The notes under the pieces are model-generated. The model saw only the letters and a program-made list of their open reading frames with translations, was not told the origin of the DNA and ran no database searches. From the NCBI GenBank assembly GCA_051362555.1, contig CM120640.1, positions 22,368,225-22,432,224 on the forward strand: a stretch of DNA of 64,000 nt, written 5' to 3'. This DNA comes from Lingula anatina. Lineage: Eukaryota; Animalia; Brachiopoda. The stretch's first letter is position 1. Every line of letters begins with the position of its first letter. This document shows positions 3,746 through 23,977 of this stretch, in pieces. A program made the position numbers and the translations under genes.

Positions 3746-5581
3746 TGTGCGTTAACGCCTTGAAAGAAAGAATATAATTCCAAAGACGCCATTCAGACAA
3801 TTAATGACAATTCACTGTGGACATAGAATGTTTTTGAAATACCTTCTTAGGACCTTATCGTTTCATTTATGTAATTAAATGTTTAGAGTTCGAAATGATG
3901 TCGATGACATGTTGTTGACGAGAACGTGCCTTACTTGCGCAACTGTTATCATATAGCGACTGCACATTGCAATCTAGACTTGTGTTAAATAGTTTGAAGG
4001 AAAAACTGTTTCTAAGTATTGTCTGTATCATATTATATACTTGTTTGTCATAACTTATTATTCAATAAAAAGTGAAAATGAATGAAAACATATAACTTGG
4101 AAAGTTCAGTTTAGTTACTTCGCTGCTTCTTTTCTTTCTTTTGCATTATTATATCTCGTAAAAAGCAATTTTGGGTGCGATGCAGGCATTAAAGGTTGTA
4201 ACCAGCCTTCAGGACAAAGGAGAAAAATGACACAAAGAAAATCCCTCAACGGATTTTATTGTTAAGTCCATCAAGGAAGGCAAAGTCATAACACAAATTT
4301 TTACGGCTTTTATATGTCCCTTTGAAGAAAACAGAAAAATGAAATAGTCTAAAATAAACATTATGAGACTTAAGACATCATACGCAAGTTGCAAATTTTC
4401 TAAAAACAAACAAGACCAATTGGAGAATGTGAGATGGTGCTGCGACCGACTGTAATAAGGTTTAAATTTTATGTTTTTTGTGTAAGATCAGATAAATCTA
4501 GTAATTAATTTTTTTCAGTGATTTAAGTTTCAAGGCTGAGATAAGTTAAGTTTCAGCTGGACAAACAATTCTTCCGCTCGCTTACTTTTAATAATCTATT
4601 AAAGTTAAATAGACCAAAATTATTTATTGAGATTCAGTGATAACGCTTACTGGACCCCACTCACCAGCGCAACAGGTCTGGTGCAGTCATTGCGTTTGTT
4701 GCGACAGCAGTGGCCTGTATGTAGGTTACGGTCCTCGGTCAAGTTTCGGTCAGAATGTGAAGCACTGAAAAAATAGGTTTTAGCCGGGCGTCAACTGCAG
4801 CGACACCTTCGTCCAAAAACTAGGTAAGAACATTTTGAAATATGCTGGTTAATATTAATGATAGTTTCTCCATTTACACCTGTTTATATCGTTACCAAGC
4901 ATCCTTTGGGCGAGTGTTTTCTCTTGCACGCCTTGTTATAGTTATAGCATAAGTTATGCATGGCTGGATATTACAATACTGACTATATATGCAAAACGAT
5001 AACGTTTACCATGCTGTGTAAACAACAAGCATGCATTACCACACTACTGATATTATCCTCACTTTATTAATTTGAAGGCATTTCTACTGTAATGCATCAG
5101 TATTTACAAAATTACAAGCGTGGTGTAATATACATTAACAGTACCTGAACAGTATATTTTTGTTACACTTTTCAGTGGTCAGTTCTACAGTATAATGATT
5201 GTTGTGAAGGGAATGCAAAAGTGCCTGACTTAATATTTAGGTGCAGTGTTGCGTTGATTACAAACTTGAACTTACAGTCTCTACTGATAACTCTGTTAGT
5301 GTTTCCATAGGACACCTGTGTGGGAATATGCATAAAATTTGCATGCATATAACAGCAACAGTATACTCCTAAACCATTTCTACTGGTTACTTAAACAACT
5401 AATATCTAAAATAAAGTCAACTTGCCAAGTCATAAAAGTCAAATTAATTCCTTGTTCTGCAAAAAAAGAAAAAAAAATGCTTCATAGAAGTACAAAAATG
5501 TTGAATTTCTTCACAGATTGGGAATACAACGTTGGTGTTTAGTCACACTTAATTATACAACTGTATGCTTTCAGAAAAACA

Positions 5582-7758
5582 ATGGGCAACAAATCGCACA
5601 AAGGAACTGTGATTTCAGCTGGACCAGGAGGCAGTCAGCAGGCACAGGGAACAGCAGTGCAACAGCGACCATATCTTGGATCACAATGTCAGTACTACTT
5701 CCTGGAGATGTCAGTGCCCTTTCGGCAGAATGTATTACAATTTACACATGGTCATAATATGATCAGTACCAACATAGACAGCTACTACCCTGCTCTAGCA
5801 CAACCATATCAGCAGGGCTGGAGAATGACAACATTCTACAGGATACCAGGAGTGGCTCAGCAGCAAGGACTTTTTAGTACAGCAGTAAATGTACCTTTCC
5901 AAGGAATATTTGTCAGGCTAGCCAGTGATCCAGTGTTTTGTAGTGAACAGTATCAGCTGAAAGTGGAGAAGTCTATCATGCTTATGACAGGTTTTAGAGG
6001 AGGTAAATTAGCTTTATACACATTTTTGCAAGGGATGTCACTCATGAAAGACATGATTACCATGAAATGTTGACATGTCTGACATTTAATTTTTGTGTTG
6101 TTCAAAGGGTAACCACTGGGTAGCCATAGAAAACAAACACATTCTTTGAGATATAGACATACTCTGGAAGTATTGATCACATTCCATAATAATTTAAGTT
6201 TAAGTGGAACTAAGTTACTTTAATCTTGGCTGTTGTTTTGACACTAACTGAATATACTGGGTATATATACAACAAATTTGAAATTCTTCACTGAGTATTT
6301 TTATGTACATACCGAGTATAGCCATGCGTCACTTGTGTCTGTCGTCTGCATTGTTGCAAAGCACTTTTCACTGTAAGCTTGGAAAACTGCCTTATTATCC
6401 CCACACTTACTGGAGTAATTTATGCTAAAAGAATACAGGCAGCTTTATTGGATCATTTTTCATGGAATTAAGCATTTTTTGTGAAGTAGTCTTTTTCTCA
6501 TATTTGCATTTTCAGTGATAATTAAATGTATGAGTATGAAATACTGTGTGACATTTTCTGAATGTCCATGAAATATCTCGTACATAATTGAAAATTGATG
6601 GTGTTTATGCTGTTAATCATTTTGTAATAATTGCATCAAACTTGATGAAAATCTCAATTTGTGCATAGCCATCATTAACACTATTAAAAGCAATCCATGT
6701 TATTTTTTATTCTCTAACTTCCAAGAATGATTCTGCAGATTAAATTATAGCTCCTATTGGAAAATCAAATTTAAAATCAATAAATATTAATAAGATATAT
6801 TTTTATCATTTATTTTTGACAAAATTGTTTTATAGGTATCCTATCATTGACGGGGCCACAGGGTGTCCAGGGTGATATGTCAGATATCCAGATGAAGATA
6901 GCTCAGAACACTCAGCATGGTGGCAGGCTAGTATGTGTTGAGATGTCAGGACAGTATGTGACACAGGGAATGGGAGCAACTATGATGGGAGTGCCTCCAG
7001 GTATGTGACAGTTTATGTCACAGGGAATGGGAACTGTCTGGGGGGAGGGGGATGGGAGTGTCTCCAGGTAAGAGAGTGTATGTGTCAAAGCGAAAGGGGA
7101 CTGCCTTAAAGGGAGTATCTCCAAGTATGACATAAGAAGTTGTTGAAGATATGATTAATTTCTTAAGTATTAAACTTTCAACACTTACTTCTTCAGCAGC
7201 AGGAGTATACCAAGGTATTCTTAAACATGCAGTTTGAATTTTCCAGGTATAGGGGTTGATGTGTTCTTTAATATGCCTCTCCATCCCAACCCAAGGCAGT
7301 ACATATATCAAGCAGTCAACGTACCAATTATGGTGGACGTCACAAGTTTCTCCAGAGATGTTCAAGTCCAGTGCAATTGGGCTCTCCATTTTGACACATT
7401 CTTGCATCAAGGCTGGCGATTGGTGGAAATATTTTTGGATCATTCTTACATGCATTCTGGCGCTGTTCATACATCACACACCATGAACTCAGTGTGGTTC
7501 TTTGAAAAGCCTGCTGATACTATGAATGATCCAACCCCAGTCTATGAGGGGACAGTGATGGAGTTTCAGCATGAAATCACAACTGATATAGGAGGAACTC
7601 ACGGAGAAGCTGGATGGAACCCAGTTGTACAGAGCATGGGAGCCAGCGGCTGGGAGCTGGCATGTATTCTGGCTACTCCAGAAGTATGGACAACAGGTGT
7701 TGGCAGGTACAAGACCATGAGGTTGATGCTATTTTTTCAGAGGAGAATAATCCGCTAG
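5582..7758 (+). CDS. Raftlin-like protein, paralog A (about 365 aa)
   Basis: Coding exons 5582-6002, 6836-7000, 7247-7758 with compatible phases (1098 nt). Probable non-coding first exon ends at the donor AG|gtaag at 4823. N-terminal MG. The C-terminal GWELACILATPEV...LMLFFQRR resembles the raftlin GWxLxCxLxTP...FxQR motif (recognised from memory). Confidence 0.8.
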
Positions 7759-11888: not shown

Positions 11889-12697
11889 CACGCTCGGCTG
11901 TCACCTTGATTGGATAGTAAACGATTGTCGTAAAATCGCTAAATGATATTAAAATCGGGTACATAAACTTAAAAACCACCTAGGACAACCTCAGACTGCC
12001 ACATTAATCCAATACAATGCAAAAATAAACTATAACAAGTGGTTAAAGCCTTCAAACCGAATGTCGTAAAGTCCCCATATACCTCCATAGAGACAATAAA
12101 ATAGAGTAAGCTTCTGAAACAAGAAAAATCCAGTTCCAACATAATAATCGAAATAAAATACTGCCGGGCATCGGAGCGGCCTAAAACTTGGCACGCTTAC
12201 CGCTAATACTGCAGGCTACATCATCCCGTCGCTCGTTTGTAAATTCCGTGCATGGCATACGCACAATCAAACCGTATATCCAAATTCCACCTCTGATGTT
12301 TGAATTGGTCCTCTCTACAATCCAATTCAGGAAATGACGGAATTTACAAACGAGCGACGGGATGATGTAGCCTGCAGTATTAGCGGTAAGCGTGCCAAGT
12401 TTTAGGCCGCTCCGATGCCCGGCAGTATTTTATTTCGATTATTATGTTGGAACTGGATTTTTCTTGTTTCAGAAGCTTACTCTATTTTATTGTCTCTATG
12501 GAGGTATATGGGGACTTTACGACATTCGGTTTGAAGGCTTTAACCACTTGTTATAGTTTATTTTTGCATTGTATTGGATTAATGTGGCAGTCTGAGGTTG
12601 TCCTAGGTGGTTTTTAAGTTTATGTACCCGATTTTAATATCATTTAGCGATTTTACGACAATCGTTTACTATCCAATCAAGGTGACAGCCGAGCGTG
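11889..12697. mobile_element. Young foldback element with 361-bp apparently perfect TIRs, 87-bp spacer and 8-bp TSD
   Basis: 11889-12249 is the reverse complement of 12337-12697 (no mismatch seen by eye). CATTGTAT is duplicated at 11881-11888 and 12698-12705. No coding capacity. Confidence 0.95.
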
Positions 12698-13123
12698 CAT
12701 TGTATTTATTACAGCGTAACTGAAACTTACAATACGGCACTGTATTGCGCAATTTACGGAGACCCCATAAGGCTGAAAAAACACATATTTGTATCAGTAC
12801 TATTATCCTGTAAATAAGTTATTGAAAAATCCAAATTTCAGCAAAAATATTATGAAAAATAAAGGTTTATGTCATGGTTTTACATTGTATGGAAAATTGA
12901 GCATGACCGCCAATACCTATATTACATTAATTTTGTCTGTTAATAGTTGTTAAAAGTGATGATTCTAGATCTAAAAAAGCAATATCAGGTCACTTTGATG
13001 CCCACTGATGGCATATTGACTTGTTAAGCAAAGGAAGTTTAGTGACATATTTTGAAATTTAAATTGTTTTCAGCTGCTTCTGTCAACTACTGCTCTTTAT
13101 TTGATTACAGGTGTTAGGGGAAA

Positions 13124-13921
13124 ATGGGCAATAAATCCCACAAAGGAACTGTAGTATCAGCTGGATCAGGAGGACACCAGGACCAGCAGGCAGTGCAACT
13201 CCCACCATATCATGGATCACCTTGCCATTATCAGTTGCTGGAGATGTCAGTGACATTCCAGAACAACATGGCTTTTAACTTTTCTCCTGGTCAGAATATG
13301 ATTAGTACCAACATAGACAGCTACTACCCTGCCCTAGCACAACCATATCAGCAGGGCTGGAGAATGACATCATTCTACAGGATACCAGGAGTGGCTCAGC
13401 AGCAAGGACTTTTTAGTACAGCAGTAAATGTACCTTTCCAAGGAATATTTGTCAGGCTAGCCAGTGATCCAGAGTTTTGTAGTGAACAGTATCAACTGAA
13501 AGTGGAGAAGTCTATCATGTATGTGGCAACTTTTAGAGGAGGTAAATTATTTTTCTAAATAAGTTATAGTTATTTTATTGGTTGATGTGGTGAACTAGTA
13601 GTATTTGGCCACAGCAGCCTATGCCATTTTCCATTCAAATACTTGCAGTCCAAACATCTCAGTGTTTGGCATGTGTATCTTTTATTGTCATTGATGGGAT
13701 TTTGTAAGAATATGAAATTATGAGTGAATTTGTTCCTTGTGATATTTTATCTTTTATTTTTCCTTGTGATATTTTATCTTTTCTATATAAAGAATTTAGC
13801 GAAAATTCACCCTAAAATAACATACATAACCATTCTGGGTACACTTCTAAAACTGAGAAAATGTGTTACAGTCAGTACAATCATATACTGGTACAGCTGT
13901 TTGTCATTAAACAAATAAGAC

Positions 13922-13958
<37 letters not shown>

Positions 13959-15474
13959 TAAACTTTCACAAAAATATTTTCAGCTATTCAGATTTATAAA
14001 GACTAAATTCTAATTGGAGCTTGTATATAGATGTACTAGCATAATTTTTGTTTAAAAGATAGTTATTTGGGTTATTAGGCCTTGTTTTCAAGGTGCTTTT
14101 AGATATTTTGGATGAACATTGTCGACAGTAATGCATACTTTATTTAACCAAGGTACTTTAGTACTTATGTTTGATGAACATTAAAAAAAAAATGTTTTAT
14201 AGGTATGCTGTCATTGACGGGGCCACAGGGTGTCCAGGGTGATATGTCAGATATCCAGATGAAGATAGCTCAGAACACTCAGCATGGTGGCAGGCTAGTG
14301 TGTGTCGAGATGTCAGGACAGTATGTGACACAGGGAATGGGAGCAGCTATGAGGGGAGTATCTCCAGGTAAGACAGTATTACTGGGAATGAGAGCAATTC
14401 AGAGGGGAGTATCAGCTTGTAAGTTGTACAAATAAGACACAGTGAGTGGCACAGGGAATGGGACCAGCTATGACAGGGATGCCTGCAGGCCTGAAAGTAC
14501 CTTTGTGGCACTGTGTATGGGGATGGCCACGAATTAAGGTTTATAAAGGACAGCCATACATTTTTGTTCAGGGACGTTGCAATTGAAAATTGATTATGTC
14601 CCTGTTTTTCAATTTTGCTCCAACATGACAGCATTAAAAACATTTTATTTGCACATGAATATTTATTTTGAGTTGTTTCTGAGACCACATTTTGACACTA
14701 TTTTACAGGGGTGTCTGCATTTGTGTAACCCATATTGCCTTTTTTTTGTATCAAGTTTTTTCAAATTCTTATAAGAAAAAGTAAAAAAAAAGGGGATAAA
14801 TGGAAATGTATAATACTGTTATTCTCAAACTTGCCATTAAATTTTTTTCAGGTATTGGAGTTGATGTTTTCTTTAACATGCCCCTCCATCCCAACCCAAG
14901 GTGTTACACTTATCAAGCAGTCAATGTACCGATTGGAATCCGCTCCAAAATGGGTTTCACTCCAACTATTCAGGTCCAATGTGATTGGATGAGTCATTAT
15001 GCAGCTTTTTTACAGCAAGGCTGGCGATTGGTGGAAATATTTTTGGATCAATCTTACATGCGATCAGGTGCTTTCAGTACTTCAGCCACCATGAACACAG
15101 TGTGGTTCTTTGAAAAACCAGCTGATGCTTTGAATGATCCAACCCCAGTCTATGAAGGGACTATAGTGGATTTTGAGCATAAAATAACAGGTGGTTTTGG
15201 AGGAGCTAGAGGAAGTGCTGGATGGAATCCAGTATTAGAAGACATGGGAACCAGGGGCTGGGAACTGGCTTGTATCCTAGAGACACCAGAAATAAGGACG
15301 ACTGGCATTGGTCAAATCAAGATGAAGCTGTTGCTCTTCTTTCAGAGGAAGATCGTTAGGCAATATCCTGGGTCTGCAGAGGCAGCACCTCCCCCACCAG
15401 GTTTTGCTGTCCCCCCCACTGCAGAGAAGGCAGAGCCAGTGATGACTGAAAAACCAGAGCACTTTAATCAATAA
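13124..15474 (+). CDS. Raftlin-like protein, paralog B (about 401 aa)
   Basis: Coding exons 13124-13541, 14203-14367, 14852-15474 (1206 nt), with the same intron positions as paralog A. Probable non-coding first exon ends at a gtaagt donor after 11002. Motif GWELACILETPEI...LLLFFQRKI followed by a Pro-rich tail. Confidence 0.82.
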
Positions 15475-16366: not shown

Positions 16367-17556
16367 TGTCTTGAAACTAGGAGTAGAGGTATTTATGTCT
16401 TAGTTTTTAGAATTATGTATAAATGCTTCCATCAGTGTTGAGCACTCTGGAAACTATACACTTCATATCAATACACATTCGTAAATGAACTTCTAAGAGA
16501 TGCTTAAAGGTAGTGGTTTTTCTGCAATAGTAATTTGTTTGACATTTTACTTCAAATATTTGTATTATTAATTTTTACCAACTTGTTTCTCAAACCCCTC
16601 TAACCTAAAAACGGCCTTAATAGAAAAGAAAATTGAATGACATAAAATGCATTGATAATCAAGGGGAGGTAAAGACATAAGTTTTAAACCAACATGATTA
16701 TTGTATGTCACCAGTAATTAAGACAAAAAAGTTCAGTGAAAAGGAGTCACTGCTTACTATTGTCCAAAAGGTTTTTAAAAAGTAACAAAAAACATTTTTG
16801 AACTTTTGAAATCCCCCACCTCACAATTCTTATTTTCTTAAGAAAATAAGAATTGCTTGTAAAACAAGTTATTTTAAAAAATCCAACTCAAATATTTCAA
16901 AGGGAAGGAGAATCATTTTTAATATTAGATTACACTCTTTTATCAGGTTTCAAAGGAATACATATATAAAGGAATACATATATATATAAAGGATCAAAAG
17001 CTTATATTTTACAAGCATATATTATAAGTGGCATTTTAATTGTGCTTCTCATTATTTATTCACAATAAATGTGTAACAAGGAATATCATTTATGTGTTAG
17101 ACCTAAATTCAAAATATTAACACTTTCAAACCAATTTTTTTTTGTCCTTACACAAGTCCATCAGTTGTATTCTTTTCCATGCAACAATTTTGTCTCTCTT
17201 CTTTATCAAACACAATTTCTCAATAAACTGTTTGAGACTGTTAGTCTGCATGAGCCACATAAGCTTTCCAAATGACCTTCACTCATTTGACTTCTAAAGA
17301 AATTTGAAACAAATTATATAACTCTTTGGGACTGATATTTGCCTGAAAATAGTTTTCTCAAAAGACATAAAAAATTGTGGATAATGTGAATGATTTTTGA
17401 TACATTTTAGAATATTTTGTCAATTCTTGACCTGGGTCTTTGACACTTCAGATTATTGCCCTTGGTATCCATTAATGCTTGGTCACAGCATGAAGATGGT
17501 TGACACAGGATTTCCTGCTTGGAAGAATAAGTCTTTCAAGAAGACCTACACATAGT

Positions 17557-19221
17557 TCATTCTTTAAACTTCCATTCTTGTCTGCACATTGGACAAAGCT
17601 GGTTTATCTGTTGGGAGTTCAGCCATTTCACAATGCAGTGGATGTGGAAACAATGTGAGCACTGGCCCCAGACTGAAATTTTCAAAAGTAATTTTAATAC
17701 CATAAATTGTAATTAGTCAAATCGATAAGACTGTGATGCATTTTGATTTCTTAATAAATTATATTCAAAACAATTGTCTTTGACATATCCTGCCCTCATT
17801 TAAACAAGAAAAAAACTTAGCAGTTAAGATTCCATTTCCACTGATTTCCACTTATTTTTAAATCAGTGAGTGAAATTTGAAATCATTATCCTTCACAAAA
17901 TGTGCACTTATTTAGTTATTTTCTTTCCCTCAGTTTACCTCTGAGCAAAATCCACTGCACATACCTAGGGGACAGTCATCTCCTGGCAGTTTACAGTCGG
18001 GGCAGCATCCATCAAATGGCATTCGACATATCCCACAATTGTCATCATTGGCTATCCACTTCCAAGTTGCAACTGCAGTCCAACTGAAAATAAAACAGCA
18101 AAATATTTGACACTTTGTTCCAGTATATTTTCATATACATATACATATTTTTGTGTACCGATTTTTTAAAGGAGATCTTACCAACATGTGCAAAAATGAA
18201 ATTTATTATAAACATGTTATATACAAAGGACAAGGTCTACAGAATAAAGAGTGAACAGTAAATCAGAATAATGCTACAAAAATGAGTCCTTGTTACAAAC
18301 CTCTCCTACCCCAAAAAATGTAGACACATGAGCAGTTGTCCCATACATAAGGAAAATTAAGGTTTGCCTGATGAAAACATGTACCACTTGTAGCAAAACA
18401 ATGGTAAGAAATCCAGGCAAAAAAAGATGCTGTATATTTTCTTTTTACTAAGTTGATCTAGATATGATATGATATAACATTTATTTTCTGAATGTTTCAG
18501 TATGCGTTTTCATGAGAAAAACAGCAGAAGTTTTAGGGAAAATAATTTTTTTATATATAACCATGGGCATCTAAATCCGAAGACCTGCTTCCAGCATCTT
18601 CATATTTCAATTTACTTTTGACTCCTCTTGTAACACTTTTAATTCGCAAATGCAAAGATGGATTACATTAATGGTTTTGCTTTGCTAAAAATCACTGAAA
18701 TTGAAATGACATGATTGGGCAAAGAGGTTGGACACATTCTCGAATGGATATGCTCAACACTGTCTTCTCTCCAATTTCCTGGATGACACGATTACTAACT
18801 TACCCTAAATAAAAGGAAACACAGGGCCATGTGAACATGAAACAAAGAACCATATATTAATATAAATGTCAAAATATTAATGATAACCAATACTTTATTT
18901 TAATAATAAATAATGAATAAATAATAAAGACACTGCGCAGTAGGTAAATGCTTCAATTTTTTTTTGATAGCACTATGTTTCTTTAACTGATGTAAAAATT
19001 TCCAAGTTGCTTCAGTTTTCGGCTTAAAAGCCTACGCTTTAAGTACCTAATATGTAACTGTACGGCAGAAATACTGACAGTGAAGCTGAAGCCAGTGAAG
19101 GTCTGGCGGAGTTGACCAGTTGCAATTCATCTATTCTTTGCATATCAAAGAGCAAATAAAATTGCACTTGCGGTAAAGTTGAATATGTTTGCTACTACTT
19201 GCCTTTGATCTTGACCTTCAT
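17557..19221 (-). CDS. ANAPC11: Anaphase-promoting complex subunit 11 (RING-H2), 84 aa
   Basis: Minus-strand exons 19221-19203 (ATGAAGGTCAAGATCAAAG, GC donor gcaagt), 18804 (1 nt, G), 18083-17965 and 17672-17557 total 255 nt. Translation: [84 protein letters not shown], clearly APC11. Not in the ORF track because the exons are short. Confidence 0.96.
18804..18804 (-). other. ANAPC11: Putative single-nucleotide microexon (G) of ANAPC11
   Basis: Minus strand reads gtttccttttatttAG|G|GTAAGT: polypyrimidine tract plus AG (18806-18805), one base, then a consensus donor (18803-18798). It supplies exactly the base needed between a phase-1 exon end and a phase-2 exon start. Confidence 0.78.
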
Positions 19222-19597
19222 CAGTGTTCTCGAAATATTCCGTGTTTTAGTTGTATTTTTTCACCATTTGAAAAAAGTGCGGAAAATAAGAGATTCTATA
19301 TTTAAGGTTTTAGTGTGTTACGTTAGGTGTCGCTGTGCCCAAGATAAACCACAGTCTATATAACGATGTAATATAATTCATAATTGCATTTCTATTGTAC
19401 AGCCCATTTTTAAAATTCTAAATTGAAATCAATGATATATTGATTACGTCACTGGAAAGAGAAATTTGGAACATTTATAAAGGCTTTTATTGCATGCGGC
19501 ATCTACCGGTAATTTTCTCATTCTTGGAGCGCCATTGTTTTTAGAGCAAATTCGCCAGCGATGTAGTATTATTTTTCTTCCTAATTTAGGTGCAAGT
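19222..19597. promoter_or_regulatory. Probable bidirectional promoter, ANAPC11 / zinc-finger gene
   Basis: Divergent start codons about 376 bp apart; CRE-like TTACGTCA near 19444 and YY1-like GCGCCATTG near 19529. Confidence 0.55.
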
Positions 19598-22500
19598 ATG
19601 GATAGGTCAATAAATGCAGGACAGGATGCAAATTTTGTCCTCTTTAAAAACCAGGTATGTGACTTGATGGCATTAAGGGCTGTTGAATCAATTAAAAATA
19701 AGGTTTTTCATTTTGCAGGGGTGTCACCATATGGTGCCTCACGCCAAAATCGGCGTATTAGTTCTGGGGCTATCTAAGTGGGGTATAATAATCAAAACAG
19801 GCGATTTTAAGTTTTTTGTCTTATGCATTAAAATTTCTTTATTGAAAATGAATCTTACTGTTGTGTTTTTGAAACTTTATTTTGGACCTTTATGAGTAAA
19901 ATGTGTAATTAAATATGTTTGATTTAAGTGGGTGGGGTCAGAGAATGGGGGTCGCAACCGAGACACATGTACAAATTGTGTTACTAAATGAAACCCCCTT
20001 GAATGTAAACAAATACTTAAGTCGAAGGAGGGTTAGGAGATGATGATTAAGGCGGTGAAAACGTCATTAGATAAGTCAGCTAAATTCAATCAATGTGCTC
20101 AAAACCATTTTTTACTTTGTAAATTTTGTATAGCTACAGTTAACTGAGGTGCTGACATTTTACGTTTTATTTTCCCATTCCTTTTAAAATGTACTCCAGT
20201 CTATAAGCACTCGTTTTGAATGGGGAAGCAAACTATTCTATCAATGGAATTCAAATAAACAAAATAAAATAATTTTTCAGCTGCTTCATAATTTCCAGTT
20301 TTTATAATTTTTTTCTATATCTGTACATATCTACTTTGAAATCAATGAGAGTGTAAATAGATAAATGAAAAAGTGTATTATGTGCCGAGTAATATACCTA
20401 TTTATTTTTTTCTAATGTGTAATCCATCTGCCTAAATTTGAAAAATGTCAAATGAAAATGAGGCATTTTTTAAAACATATTTAATACATTGCAATATTAC
20501 ACAGTATTATACAAATTTCCATGTTTTACTCAATTTCAGTTGATGACTTCTATACAGGAAGTATATAAAATGAAGAGTAAGGAACAAATACAATGTCTTG
20601 ATCTGCTAAAAGTGGTCACTGTGCAGTTAGAACAACTGCTCAGGCTGCTTGGAGCAACTGGAGTTTGGGTACATGGTGACAGCGCAGGGTGCGATGGTAA
20701 AACTTTACCTGGATTTTCAGCTGATAGTAAAATACAAGGAAACTCAGATGGAGAAAATGAGAGCAATAAGTGTTTCAGTAAAATCATTGACATTATATCA
20801 GAGCAATCTTTATTATCCCTCCCCACACCATCTACCTGCCAGATATCACACGATGTAAAGGATTGTACAGAGTTCCCTTACACAGCCAGGCAGAGATATG
20901 TGGGGGATACTAGTGTTGGTGCTGTGTGTGGCATACTGGATGAACTTGTAGACCAAGCCGTTAACCTCAGTCAGTTGGCACTTGCAGCTTCAGAGACGTT
21001 TACAACTCAGAGAGGCAGAGTTGTATCAAAACCTAATCTGAAGAAAACCATGGAAGGAAATGATGCTGATGTGGAACCCCGACCTAAAAGAAGACGTGGG
21101 CGGCCACCGAAAAATAAAGATAGTCAATACTGCAAGACGGACACAGTGACAAAGAAGATCAAAATGAAGGCATTAAAGACAGCAGGTGATAGGCAGCGTG
21201 TCAAACAGCAGAGACAGACAGTTTCCAGCAAAAGAAAAAATCCACATCCAAGAAAGCTCACTCAGTTGGAAAATAAGGAGACCAAAGCAGTGGAAGAAGA
21301 TCCTTCATTGGCTGTTGATGAATTAAATGAAAAAGAAAATGATGAAGCAAATGATGTAGATTACAGTGCATCTGTAGACCAAGGCTCAATGTCTGAAAAT
21401 GAAGATGATGATGATGATTACAAACCAGATAGAAAAATGAGGAAAAGGCGTTGGAAACACAGACGGAAAATTGTACATGTCTGTAAGATTTGCAAAGAAT
21501 GGTTTACCCATGGACGTTCCTTTAATGCTCACCTCCAGACTCATGTTGAAAACCAGGATCATGGTGCAAGCTGCCGTGCTTGCAAAACAGAGTTTCCAAA
21601 CACAGTGCAGTATATTCATCATGAATGCAAGGCTCTAAAGGAGAAGATCAAGGGTAAGCAACGGGACTGCAAGTATTGCAATCGTGTGTTCACCAACTAC
21701 AAAAAGTGGCAATATCACATGAAGACAGTACATCATCAAAGGGTGCTGGATCCAACCTTGTTATACTGCTGTCTGTACTGTGGCAAGGGCTACTCCAGGA
21801 AATCCTCTCTCTACATCCACTACAAAGACCATGCCTTGGAGGGACAGGTTGTTTGTCAGAAGTGTGGTGAATTTCTGGATAATGAAGCAGCTTTCATAGA
21901 ACACAACAAAGGCCATGAAGAGGAGGCACAGTTCTTCTGTGACCTGTGCAATATGAGTTTCATCCGTCGTCAGCAGTATAAGCAGCATCTGGAGGCTCAC
22001 CAGAAATACACGTGCAATGTTTGTCAACAGTCATTTTCAATCAATAAACAGCTGATAAAACATAAGAAGATCGCCCATCGTATTAAGGGTCCATCTGAAC
22101 CAAAGAAGTATGCTTGTCTGGTGTGTGACAAAAGATTTGTGAGACCTGGACTACTGGATATACACATAAGACTTCACACAGGTAATGAAAGGCTCTTAAT
22201 TTGTAATTTTTTTTAATTTGTTATTGAGTTCAGTATTTTTTTCTTTTATGACACATTAAATCTTGGATACAGTGCTTTGATTTTAGTATGCTAAATGAAT
22301 AGAAGAAAATATTATTTGATGACCAATTTCTGTGGTTAGCATTGTCTATTGGAAAATGTTATTCAGCAGTTTAACTTCAAAATCTATGAAAAACTTTATT
22401 TGAGACCCTGTCCTTGTGTTCTAGGTGAGAAGCCCATAGAGTGTCCAATTTGCCACATGTACTTCAGGACTCCCAAAGCATTTGCCAAACACAAGCAAAC

Positions 22501-23977
22501 ACGCACGCATCTCCTGAGAGCTGGAGAGTTACCCAGGGAGAGAGACCATCTCTGCTCAATATGTGGGAAGGCATTCTTTAGGTAGGTCTCTCCTTAGGAC
22601 ATCAAATCTTGATTTTTTTCAGGTACATATCATTTCATACATATGCTTGCTTGGTCTTTGTCTTCTTCACTTCATTGTAAGCAAAGGGGCTCTTAGGCAC
22701 TCTATTCTGTGGTGCTCTTTTCACACATGGGTATATATTTGTATTGCTTTTAAAAACATACACATGTAACCCCATACACAGCAAATAGGATCATACAAAA
22801 TTGAAAGAAGTAAGCATGCACAGTTTAAAAAAATGAACTGTACATTTATGTATTTCATGTATTTTTCACTTACAGAAAGCATGCCCTCCAGAGGCATATG
22901 CAGTACCACAGTGAAGACCGCCCTCACTGTTGTCCACACTGTGATTTCAAGTGTAAGGAACCAAACAACCTGAAGCGCCACATTGCACTGCATTTCTCCT
23001 CTGAGAGGAACTTTGTTTGTGATGTTTGTGGTGCAGCCTTCCACACCAAGAAAACCTTGCAGACACATCATGTGTATAAACACTCAGAGCAGCGAGAGTT
23101 CCCATGCAGTGACTGTAACCTCTCCTTTAAGACCCCAAATGCTCTGAAAAGGCATGAGCATGTTCACAGTAATGACCGTCCTCACAAGTGTTACTGTGGT
23201 CAAGCTTTTCTCCGCCTGTATAACCTGAGGAGACACATGAAGCATCTGCATGGCACTGATGCCCCTCTACCCCCTGTGAGGAGACTGAAAACTGTGGACA
23301 TGCCTGAGGGGGAGGCTGGCAAGGGATCCTCCAAGGATTTTGATGAGAGATCTTTTAATGCCAAGATAGCTGCTGATAGATCCCTGGCTGAGCAAGCGAT
23401 GGCCAGTATTCCTGTGAGGGGTCAGGTGGGTGATCCACAGTTCACAATGCTGGGGGTCATTGTACCAAACTCTGAGTCCAGTACTGCTACATATGTTCCT
23501 AATGGCTCAGGGACACTGCTCTCTGTGCAGCCTGCCATTCAGCAACAGCAACCACAACAGCAGCAGCAACAACTCCCTCAACAGCAGCAAACACAGCCAC
23601 CACATGGGATCCAGGTTCACAAGGTGATACCTACTGCTGCATCCCACACAGAGAAACAAGAACAGTCTTTTGTGGAACCAACAGTTAGCCTGTCCCAACA
23701 GCAAGGACACATAGTGGAGCACATCCCTATATCAACGGGCAGTGTTCCATCTGTGCAGGAGACTTATCCCACTATTAACCTCCAGCATCTCCACCCACAA
23801 CACGTGGTGTACCAGCCGTATCCTCCCCCTCCACACCAGCAGGCTATCTCACAAGATGGCCACCCTGTGGTGCACCAGTTCTCAGAGCAGCAGGTGCCCC
23901 AGGAACGTGTGGACTACTCTCCAGAGGTGTATGCTGCCATGACAAGTCTGGTCCACTTCATGCACAATGCTCAGTAA
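19598..23977 (+). CDS. AT-hook and multi-C2H2 zinc-finger transcription factor (about 985 aa, ~14 fingers, Gln-rich C-terminus)
   Basis: Exons 19598-19654, 20540-22181, 22425-22581, 22876-23977 with compatible phases (2958 nt). AT-hook RRRGRPPK, acidic tract, repeated CxxC-12-HxxxH fingers with an HTGEKP linker spanning an intron, and polyQ near 23540-23590. The first exon is less certain. Confidence 0.88.

Follow-up and report, generated by a model that had tools for sequence, protein, structure and literature searches.

In Arabidopsis APC11, base changes proved a single-nucleotide exon, A333, which is constitutive and has a putative branch point 44 nt from the acceptor (Guo and Liu 2015, PMC4674806). 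The available text of a later study presents the APC11 one-base exon as a land-plant feature and describes another one-base exon in plant VPS55 (Yu et al. 2022, PMC8831610). Fusarium CYP621A also contains a one-nucleotide exon, which its authors (2026) call, in the part of the paper available, the second instance of an exon of this minimal size; it too is spliceosomal, and its G, enclosed in AG-G-GT with a phase-1 intron on one side and a phase-2 intron on the other, stands second in a Gly codon (PMC12940212). As far as the available texts of these papers go, CYP621A and VPS55 share spliceosomal one-base exons with the gene studied here, but they are unrelated genes confined to narrow taxa, with no homology across kingdoms. 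A one-base exon of an animal is known from placozoan cox1, where partly spliced transcripts demonstrated it; according to the available portion of that report, however, the gene is mitochondrial, the flanking introns are self-splicing group I introns, and the exon is not spliceosomal (Osigus et al. 2017, PMC5436844). A literature search of incomplete coverage found no one-base exon in an animal nuclear gene, and the available parts of two further papers (PMC3095333 and PMC12409088) add nothing on animal one-base exons.

Here, we analyze the ANAPC11 gene of the brachiopod Lingula anatina in a 64,000-nt stretch of genomic DNA, hereafter the window. It is very likely that one G in the ANAPC11 mRNA derives from a constitutive one-base exon at position 18804, probably inherited from an ancestor shared by animals and plants; that the exon itself is real we regard as highly probable. 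Like the land-plant APC11 exon (PMC4674806 and the available text of PMC8831610), it lies in the same gene, belongs with a 19-nt first coding exon and provides the second base of codon 7, ahead of the conserved Trp; it likewise appears constitutive, was missed by annotation, and was lost in some lineages through intron loss. It differs in that the base is G rather than A, the host is an animal, and the upstream intron (1a) is a GC-AG intron of the major class rather than U12-like. Moreover, the Arabidopsis exon was proved by mutation, whereas that of the window is supported by sequence and RNA reads. Spliceosomal one-base exons as such were known already; the animal nuclear host, the different class of the upstream intron, and the deep age would be new.

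ANAPC11 of Lingula anatina and its transcripts

The gene lies on the minus strand and is identified as an APC11/ANAPC11 RING-H2 gene by its 84-aa predicted product and by matches of exons 3 and 4 to Pfam zf-ANAPC11 (47.5 and 59.7 bits against a cut-off of 25). Exon 1 has a coding part of 19 nt (19203..19221, minus strand), which encodes MKVKIK plus G, comprising codons 1–6 and the opening base of codon 7, and is followed by GCAAGT; its 5′ UTR is transcribed to about 19300, with RNA depth over 19209–19342 in 4/4 runs. Exon 3 (17965..18083, minus strand; 119 nt), supported by sequence, RNA, and Pfam, begins T-TGG and encodes the first half of the RING-H2 domain. A last intron of 292 nt with GT-AG ends (17673..17964, minus strand; RNA joint 17672 to 17965 in 4/4 runs) separates it from the coding part of exon 4 (17557..17672, minus strand), which extends to a TGA stop and has the same three kinds of support. 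The position of this last intron is common to the window and to coral-, bivalve-, insect-, and plant-type loci.

As the preliminary description of this DNA had stated, the phases of exon 1, which has a GC donor, and exon 3 do not match, and the interval that separates the two holds an AG-G-GTAAGT site at 18804. Taken as an exon (18804..18804, minus strand; context TTTATTTAG|G|GTAAGT), this G provides the second of the three bases in codon 7, a Gly (G|G|T). It would be preceded by intron 1a (18805..19202, minus strand), a phase-1 GC-AG intron of 398 nt with the donor AAG|GCAAGT, and followed by intron 1b (18084..18803, minus strand), a phase-2 GT-AG intron of 720 nt with the donor GTAAGT. The predicted product is 84 aa if the G is kept, 16 aa if it is left out, and 85 aa if a GT donor at 19198 is used.

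A canonical acceptor precedes base 18804, and a canonical donor follows it. Ahead of the base is an AG-free stretch of about 90 nt (18807..18892, minus strand), with branch-point-like motifs 53–73 nt upstream of the exon and pyrimidines at 19/25 positions. Six AG-N-GT sites occur in the 1119-nt interval between exons 1 and 3, and N is G in one of them; the other five were rejected because they offer the wrong base. When the interval was simulated 20,000 times with a second-order Markov model, 11 of the copies held a YAG-G-GTRAG site with a comparable pyrimidine tract, and neither strand of the 64-kb window holds another besides that at 18804. The 5′ end of intron 1a, GCAAGTAG, has mismatches at 6/8 positions to the U12 consensus RTATCCTT and therefore does not classify as U12-type.

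RNA was sampled from 4 of the 9 runs that carry the species label, at about 6–25% of each, and a junction was listed if at least three reads supported it. The sole joint listed between exons 1 and 3 runs from 18083 to 19202, with 14, 10, 14, and 18 reads in the four runs. In all 56 of these listed junction reads, the mRNA reads AAAG-G-TTGG, one G beyond the canonical joining of the flanking exons, which is the cDNA junction that had been predicted. The aligner draws it as an intron that skips 1118 bases and ends in CA..AG, exactly the disguise that had been foreseen. Three other readings of the gene were rejected on the same data from four runs: no direct GC-AG joint of exon 1 to exon 3 (16 aa) reached three reads, compared with 56 reads including the G; likewise, none that starts at the alternative GT donor (19198; 85 aa) did so; and the reads carry no insertion at exon 1, where a base missing from the assembly would appear. 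The latter two had been named in the preliminary description as outcomes that would overturn its claim.

At this sampling of the four runs (about 6–25% of each), read depth is zero over 18137–19007, and neither a half-spliced intermediate nor a lariat occurs among the reads; unspliced reads lie within intron 1a (19008–19208, depth 1–2, runs X1 and X5), and intron 1b has none. Since the extra base is a G, reads of this kind fit a one-base exon and a single noncanonical intron alike. The origin of the G is thus ambiguous in the window, and related loci decide the question; from both sources together, we infer that 18804 is used as an exon in Lingula anatina.

Further features of the window were noted. 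In run X4, four reads at 17674 continue upstream of exon 4 into pyrimidine-rich sequence absent from the window, which represents either the intron end of a different allele or an unrecognized exon. The RNA runs differ from one another in both UTRs (17400–17660 and 19220–19290) by numerous allelic variants and small insertions, and the host species is highly polymorphic. ANAPC11 is neighbored by an exon of NUDT2, the best named matches of both being from molluscs, and stands head to head with a C2H2 zinc-finger gene (20474–23977). Two tandem paralogues occupy 5543–7758 and 13118–15474, the second with a Raftlin-like/DUF4177-like domain. One 32-nt context recurs on opposite strands at about 12085–12115 and 12470–12500, which points to an inverted repeat spanning about 400 nt.

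Phase mismatch and AG-N-GT sites in related loci

As relatives, we took the best 80 of 477 matching stretches in metagenome contigs. After removal of 19 duplicates, a script classified 57 of these loci, and 4 more were assigned by hand; 19 loci with a phase-2 acceptor in which exon 1 is absent from the locus were excluded from the counts. Among the best 80 of 477, 13 loci, in which a 19-nt exon 1 ends at a GT donor and the acceptor is in phase 2, have the mismatch of the window, 13 have phase 1 at both ends (including L006, an intermediate described below, and several others nearest to insect or mite proteins), and 7 are contiguous. The possibility of a 20-nt first exon was set aside, as such an exon with a GT or GC donor was present in 0/58 genes. 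No fungal or protist APC11 could be placed with certainty among the classified loci of the best 80 of 477.

Loss of one intron is a separate pattern. In L007, L009, L012, L018, L019, L021, L025, L040, L042, L049, L062, and L073 the phase-1 intron alone is left, several of these loci being nearest to insect or mite proteins; here the base appears to be fused to exon 3, intron 1b having been lost.

The motif HAG-N-GT(RAG/ATG), which was picked after the sites had been seen, is present in 12/13 mismatched genes that represent about 6 lineages and are thus not independent (the window and 12 loci; L074 was left out as a near copy of L067). Counting related loci alone, it is found in 11/12, which is how the scan of APC11 intron 1 proposed in the preliminary description turned out; the failure is L050. 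At spacings of 0, 2, 3, and 4, the motif occurs in 1, 0, 1, and 1 of the 13 genes. In a weight-matrix shuffle test, for which the 13 genes overlap with those just counted, 9/13 reached P ≤ 0.05 at spacing 1, compared with 0/13 at spacings 0, 2, and 3 and 0/13 at spacing 1 in phase-matched introns; the failures were L035, L044, L058, and L065, three of which have AAG acceptors. In nine related animal loci, AAG-G-GT forms a conservation peak within diverged introns (858–3120 nt): column identity is about 0.8 at the site vs. 0.4–0.5 further downstream, and pairwise BLAST of these introns gives an alignment near AAG-G-GT alone. Upstream intron 1a has a major-type donor in all animal loci examined.

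Variation among these sites was also observed. In one related animal group (L044, L047, L051, L054, L055, L058, L059, L064, and L065), the one-base exon is preceded by an AAG acceptor that lacks a pyrimidine tract; a motif upstream is conserved, and the conserved Trp8 is replaced by Leu or Met. L035:37-1101 has three AG-N-GT candidates with strong donors, and L029:963 is a second, higher-scoring site with G; these additional sites could provide alternative one-base exons that change residue 7.

Coral-type loci separate the two introns and have a different base. In L017 and L029, whose nearest named proteins are from corals, exon 1 ends in C, the site reads CAG-A-GTGAGT, and exon 3 begins G-TGG. 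Contig L006 starts with an exact copy of L029 470–629 and continues with exon 3 (119/119 identical); its sole loss relative to L029 is a 533-nt GT..AG piece, and the 126-nt upstream intron is kept. In L028, the matching 360-nt piece of L017 is gone, and intron 1a is again kept; several further introns have also been removed, so this contig derives from RNA. L006, in which the later intron is kept too, could be a genomic allele that has lost intron 1b. The base joined to exon 3 is A in both contigs, which cannot come from a flanking splice-site G and hence supports a separate one-base exon. Separate removal of a flanking intron is thus seen for intron 1b only, in coral-type L006 and L028, and the coral downstream intron appears to be a separate canonical intron with A as the joined base.

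Named coral proteins were compared with these contigs. The start of the Orbicella model P0136 is a translation of the 1a-retained form, and other named coral models have Glu ahead of the Trp. No fully spliced coral mRNA was found, nor did a second protein search yield a full-length coral protein for codon 7. An intronic ATG as the true coral start was rejected because its frame is not conserved between L017 and L029.

Plant APC11 and its upstream intron

In Arabidopsis, one forward primer served for cDNA and genomic DNA alike; it is 19 nt long (Table S1, PMC4674806), the same length as exon 1 of the window. In plant-type loci L067 and L074 (poplar-like) and the more distant L075, an exon 1 of 19 nt is followed by an A exon and then by G-TGG, with the one-base exon in the same codon as in the window. 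Primer and layout together bear out the earlier suggestion that the animal exon occupies the place of the plant one. Spliced contig L071 and genomic L075 agree in their 19-nt exon 1; in L071 this is followed by A, the base of L075's one-base exon; with L006 and L029, this pair forms a natural comparison in which an A exon yields a joined A.

Plant-type intron 1a (L067:972-1660, L074:9059-9747, L075:367-673, and L077:60-133) carries U12 signals. It begins GTATCCT in L067, L074, and L075, with 0–1 mismatches to RTATCCTT, and a CCTTRAC motif lies 39–43 nt before the one-base exon in L067, L074, L075, and L077. The minor-intron consensus, as given in the available text of PMC8199999, comprises RTATCCTT at the 5′ end and TCCTTRAC at a branch point 10–20 nt from the acceptor. 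Both the 5′ end and the branch motif agree with it, but the branch distance of 39–43 nt, which is conserved and about twice as long as usual, does not; judged by consensus match, plant-type intron 1a looks U12-type. Four named plant models translate through exon 1 as RIL or RIF, which fits a GTATCCT-type donor in those plants. The term “U12” is absent from the main text of PMC8831610, and literature and look-up searches of incomplete coverage found no U12 remark on APC11.

Between plants and animals, the lineages covered come down to one unplaced eukaryote, L050:1311-1700, which has the same phase mismatch and a last intron of 42 nt. Its one-base reading requires introns of 37 and 35 nt, and a GTATCCTT motif lies 4 nt into intron 1a, which allows a putative alternative reading with a single intron.

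Splicing order and rival explanations

Acceptor and donor complexes cannot occupy one base together, as has been argued for Arabidopsis (PMC4674806), so the splicing steps must be sequential, and we infer that the two introns are taken out in turn by ordinary spliceosomes. Under the mechanism that we propose, the strong GT-AG intron 1b would go first, which would fuse the base to exon 3, so that a 120-nt exon starts with it, and would also delete the competing acceptor at 18084. Intron 1a, presumably the slower of the two (GC donor in the window, U12-type in plants), would then be left with one correct acceptor, and skipping would be avoided as the competitor is gone. Minor introns are spliced about twofold more slowly, according to the available text of PMC8199999. 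Both coral-type intermediates have lost 1b and kept 1a. In the available text of PMC8831610, a moss isoform has the base of the one-base exon as the 3′ end of a larger exon, which we read as the 1a-retained form, and soybean reads, in the source text available, mapped across the downstream intron of the APC11 one-base exon only; on this reading, both fit the downstream-first order. That order is on balance likely, with two contigs as its basis and with retained forms that need not lie on the pathway, and it would extend to Lingula anatina.

Several other explanations deserve weight. Recursive splicing uses zero-nucleotide AG|GT ratchet points, at which the upstream intron is removed first. ANAPC11 resembles this system in that acceptor and donor nearly touch and the steps are sequential, but it keeps one base in the mRNA (spacing 1, not 0), its introns are short, and the order seen is downstream first, so it does not qualify as recursive splicing. 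A real exon might nevertheless be spliced in the recursive order, with 1a removed first and the G plus GTAAGT then serving as a renewed donor, since AGG precedes the 1b donor both before and after 1a removal. The preliminary description had favored this order; L006 and L028 show the reverse, the 1a donors of the window and of plants (GC and U12-like) are both expected to be slower, and the few intronic reads of the window fall in 1a and none in 1b (depth 1–2, a weak indication). We consider it rather unlikely. A reading without any micro-exon, in which a single 1118-nt intron has the noncanonical ends CA-AG or GC-CA and the AG-G-GT site is unused, agrees with the joint drawn by the aligner; no read touches 18804, and with a G exon the mature mRNA fits a single intron with either pair of ends just as well as a one-base exon. 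Yet these ends are not normally used by either spliceosome, and here they would be used despite four canonical sites, while the same reading cannot yield the A of coral- and plant-type genes or account for an internal site that recurs in 11/12 relatives, which makes it highly improbable. The exon might instead act as a regulated off-switch, with skipping leading to a frameshift and message decay, as the preliminary description had supposed. The skipped form stops after 16 codons, 87 nt before the last junction; by the 50-nt rule, a stop that far ahead of the last junction would trigger nonsense-mediated decay, and decay could hide skipped reads. Against this stand the 56 included reads with no skipped joint among junctions of at least three reads in four runs, the constitutive exon of Arabidopsis, and the loss of one or both introns in many lineages; the form actually observed, if there is any regulation, is retention of intron 1a. 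Such a switch seems improbable.

The remaining alternative concerns age. Introns may have been gained independently in animals and plants on both sides of the same base; the class of the upstream intron differs (U2-like in animal loci examined, U12-like in plants), one or both introns are absent in many animals, and the sample of eukaryotes is thin. However, the window and the land-plant exon share the codon and the phases of both flanking introns, and three plant–animal intron positions coincide, namely both flanks and the last intron. The difference in class is explained by U12-to-U2 conversion, the one direction of intron class conversion reported in the available text of PMC7367187, which is consistent with conversion of an ancient intron in animals. 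The same phase mismatch also occurs in L050, a eukaryote whose last intron is 42 nt long. Independent gain is therefore doubtful, and ancient inheritance, left open against convergence in the preliminary description, is favored: with good confidence, the plant and animal one-base exons are homologous. We lean slightly toward a fuller history in which the exon was present in the ancestor that plants and animals last shared, between a U12 and a U2 intron, a pairing that fixed the splicing order and blocked skipping; plants would then have kept the U12 intron, many invertebrates would have converted it to the major class, and insects and others would have lost one or both introns.

Public gene models bear on annotation. 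P0019, P0023, P0033, P0044, P0047, P0049, P0052, P0136, P0142, and P0216, from corals, an anemone, molluscs, and a hemichordate, have an unusual N-terminus before Trp8, as expected if a one-base exon was missed, and such an omission would account for the wrong N-terminus in many coral, mollusc, and plant APC11 models. The Lingula gene would extend spliceosomal one-base exons to animals, in which splicing is usually explained by exon definition, something that a single base cannot support, and it offers a natural, essential gene for testing order-dependent splicing. A slow upstream intron, once U12-type, suggests a route by which such an exon may have survived for more than 1 billion years. If the ancestral U12/U2 reading is true, this would be the oldest known exon of the smallest possible size and the first nuclear one in animals.
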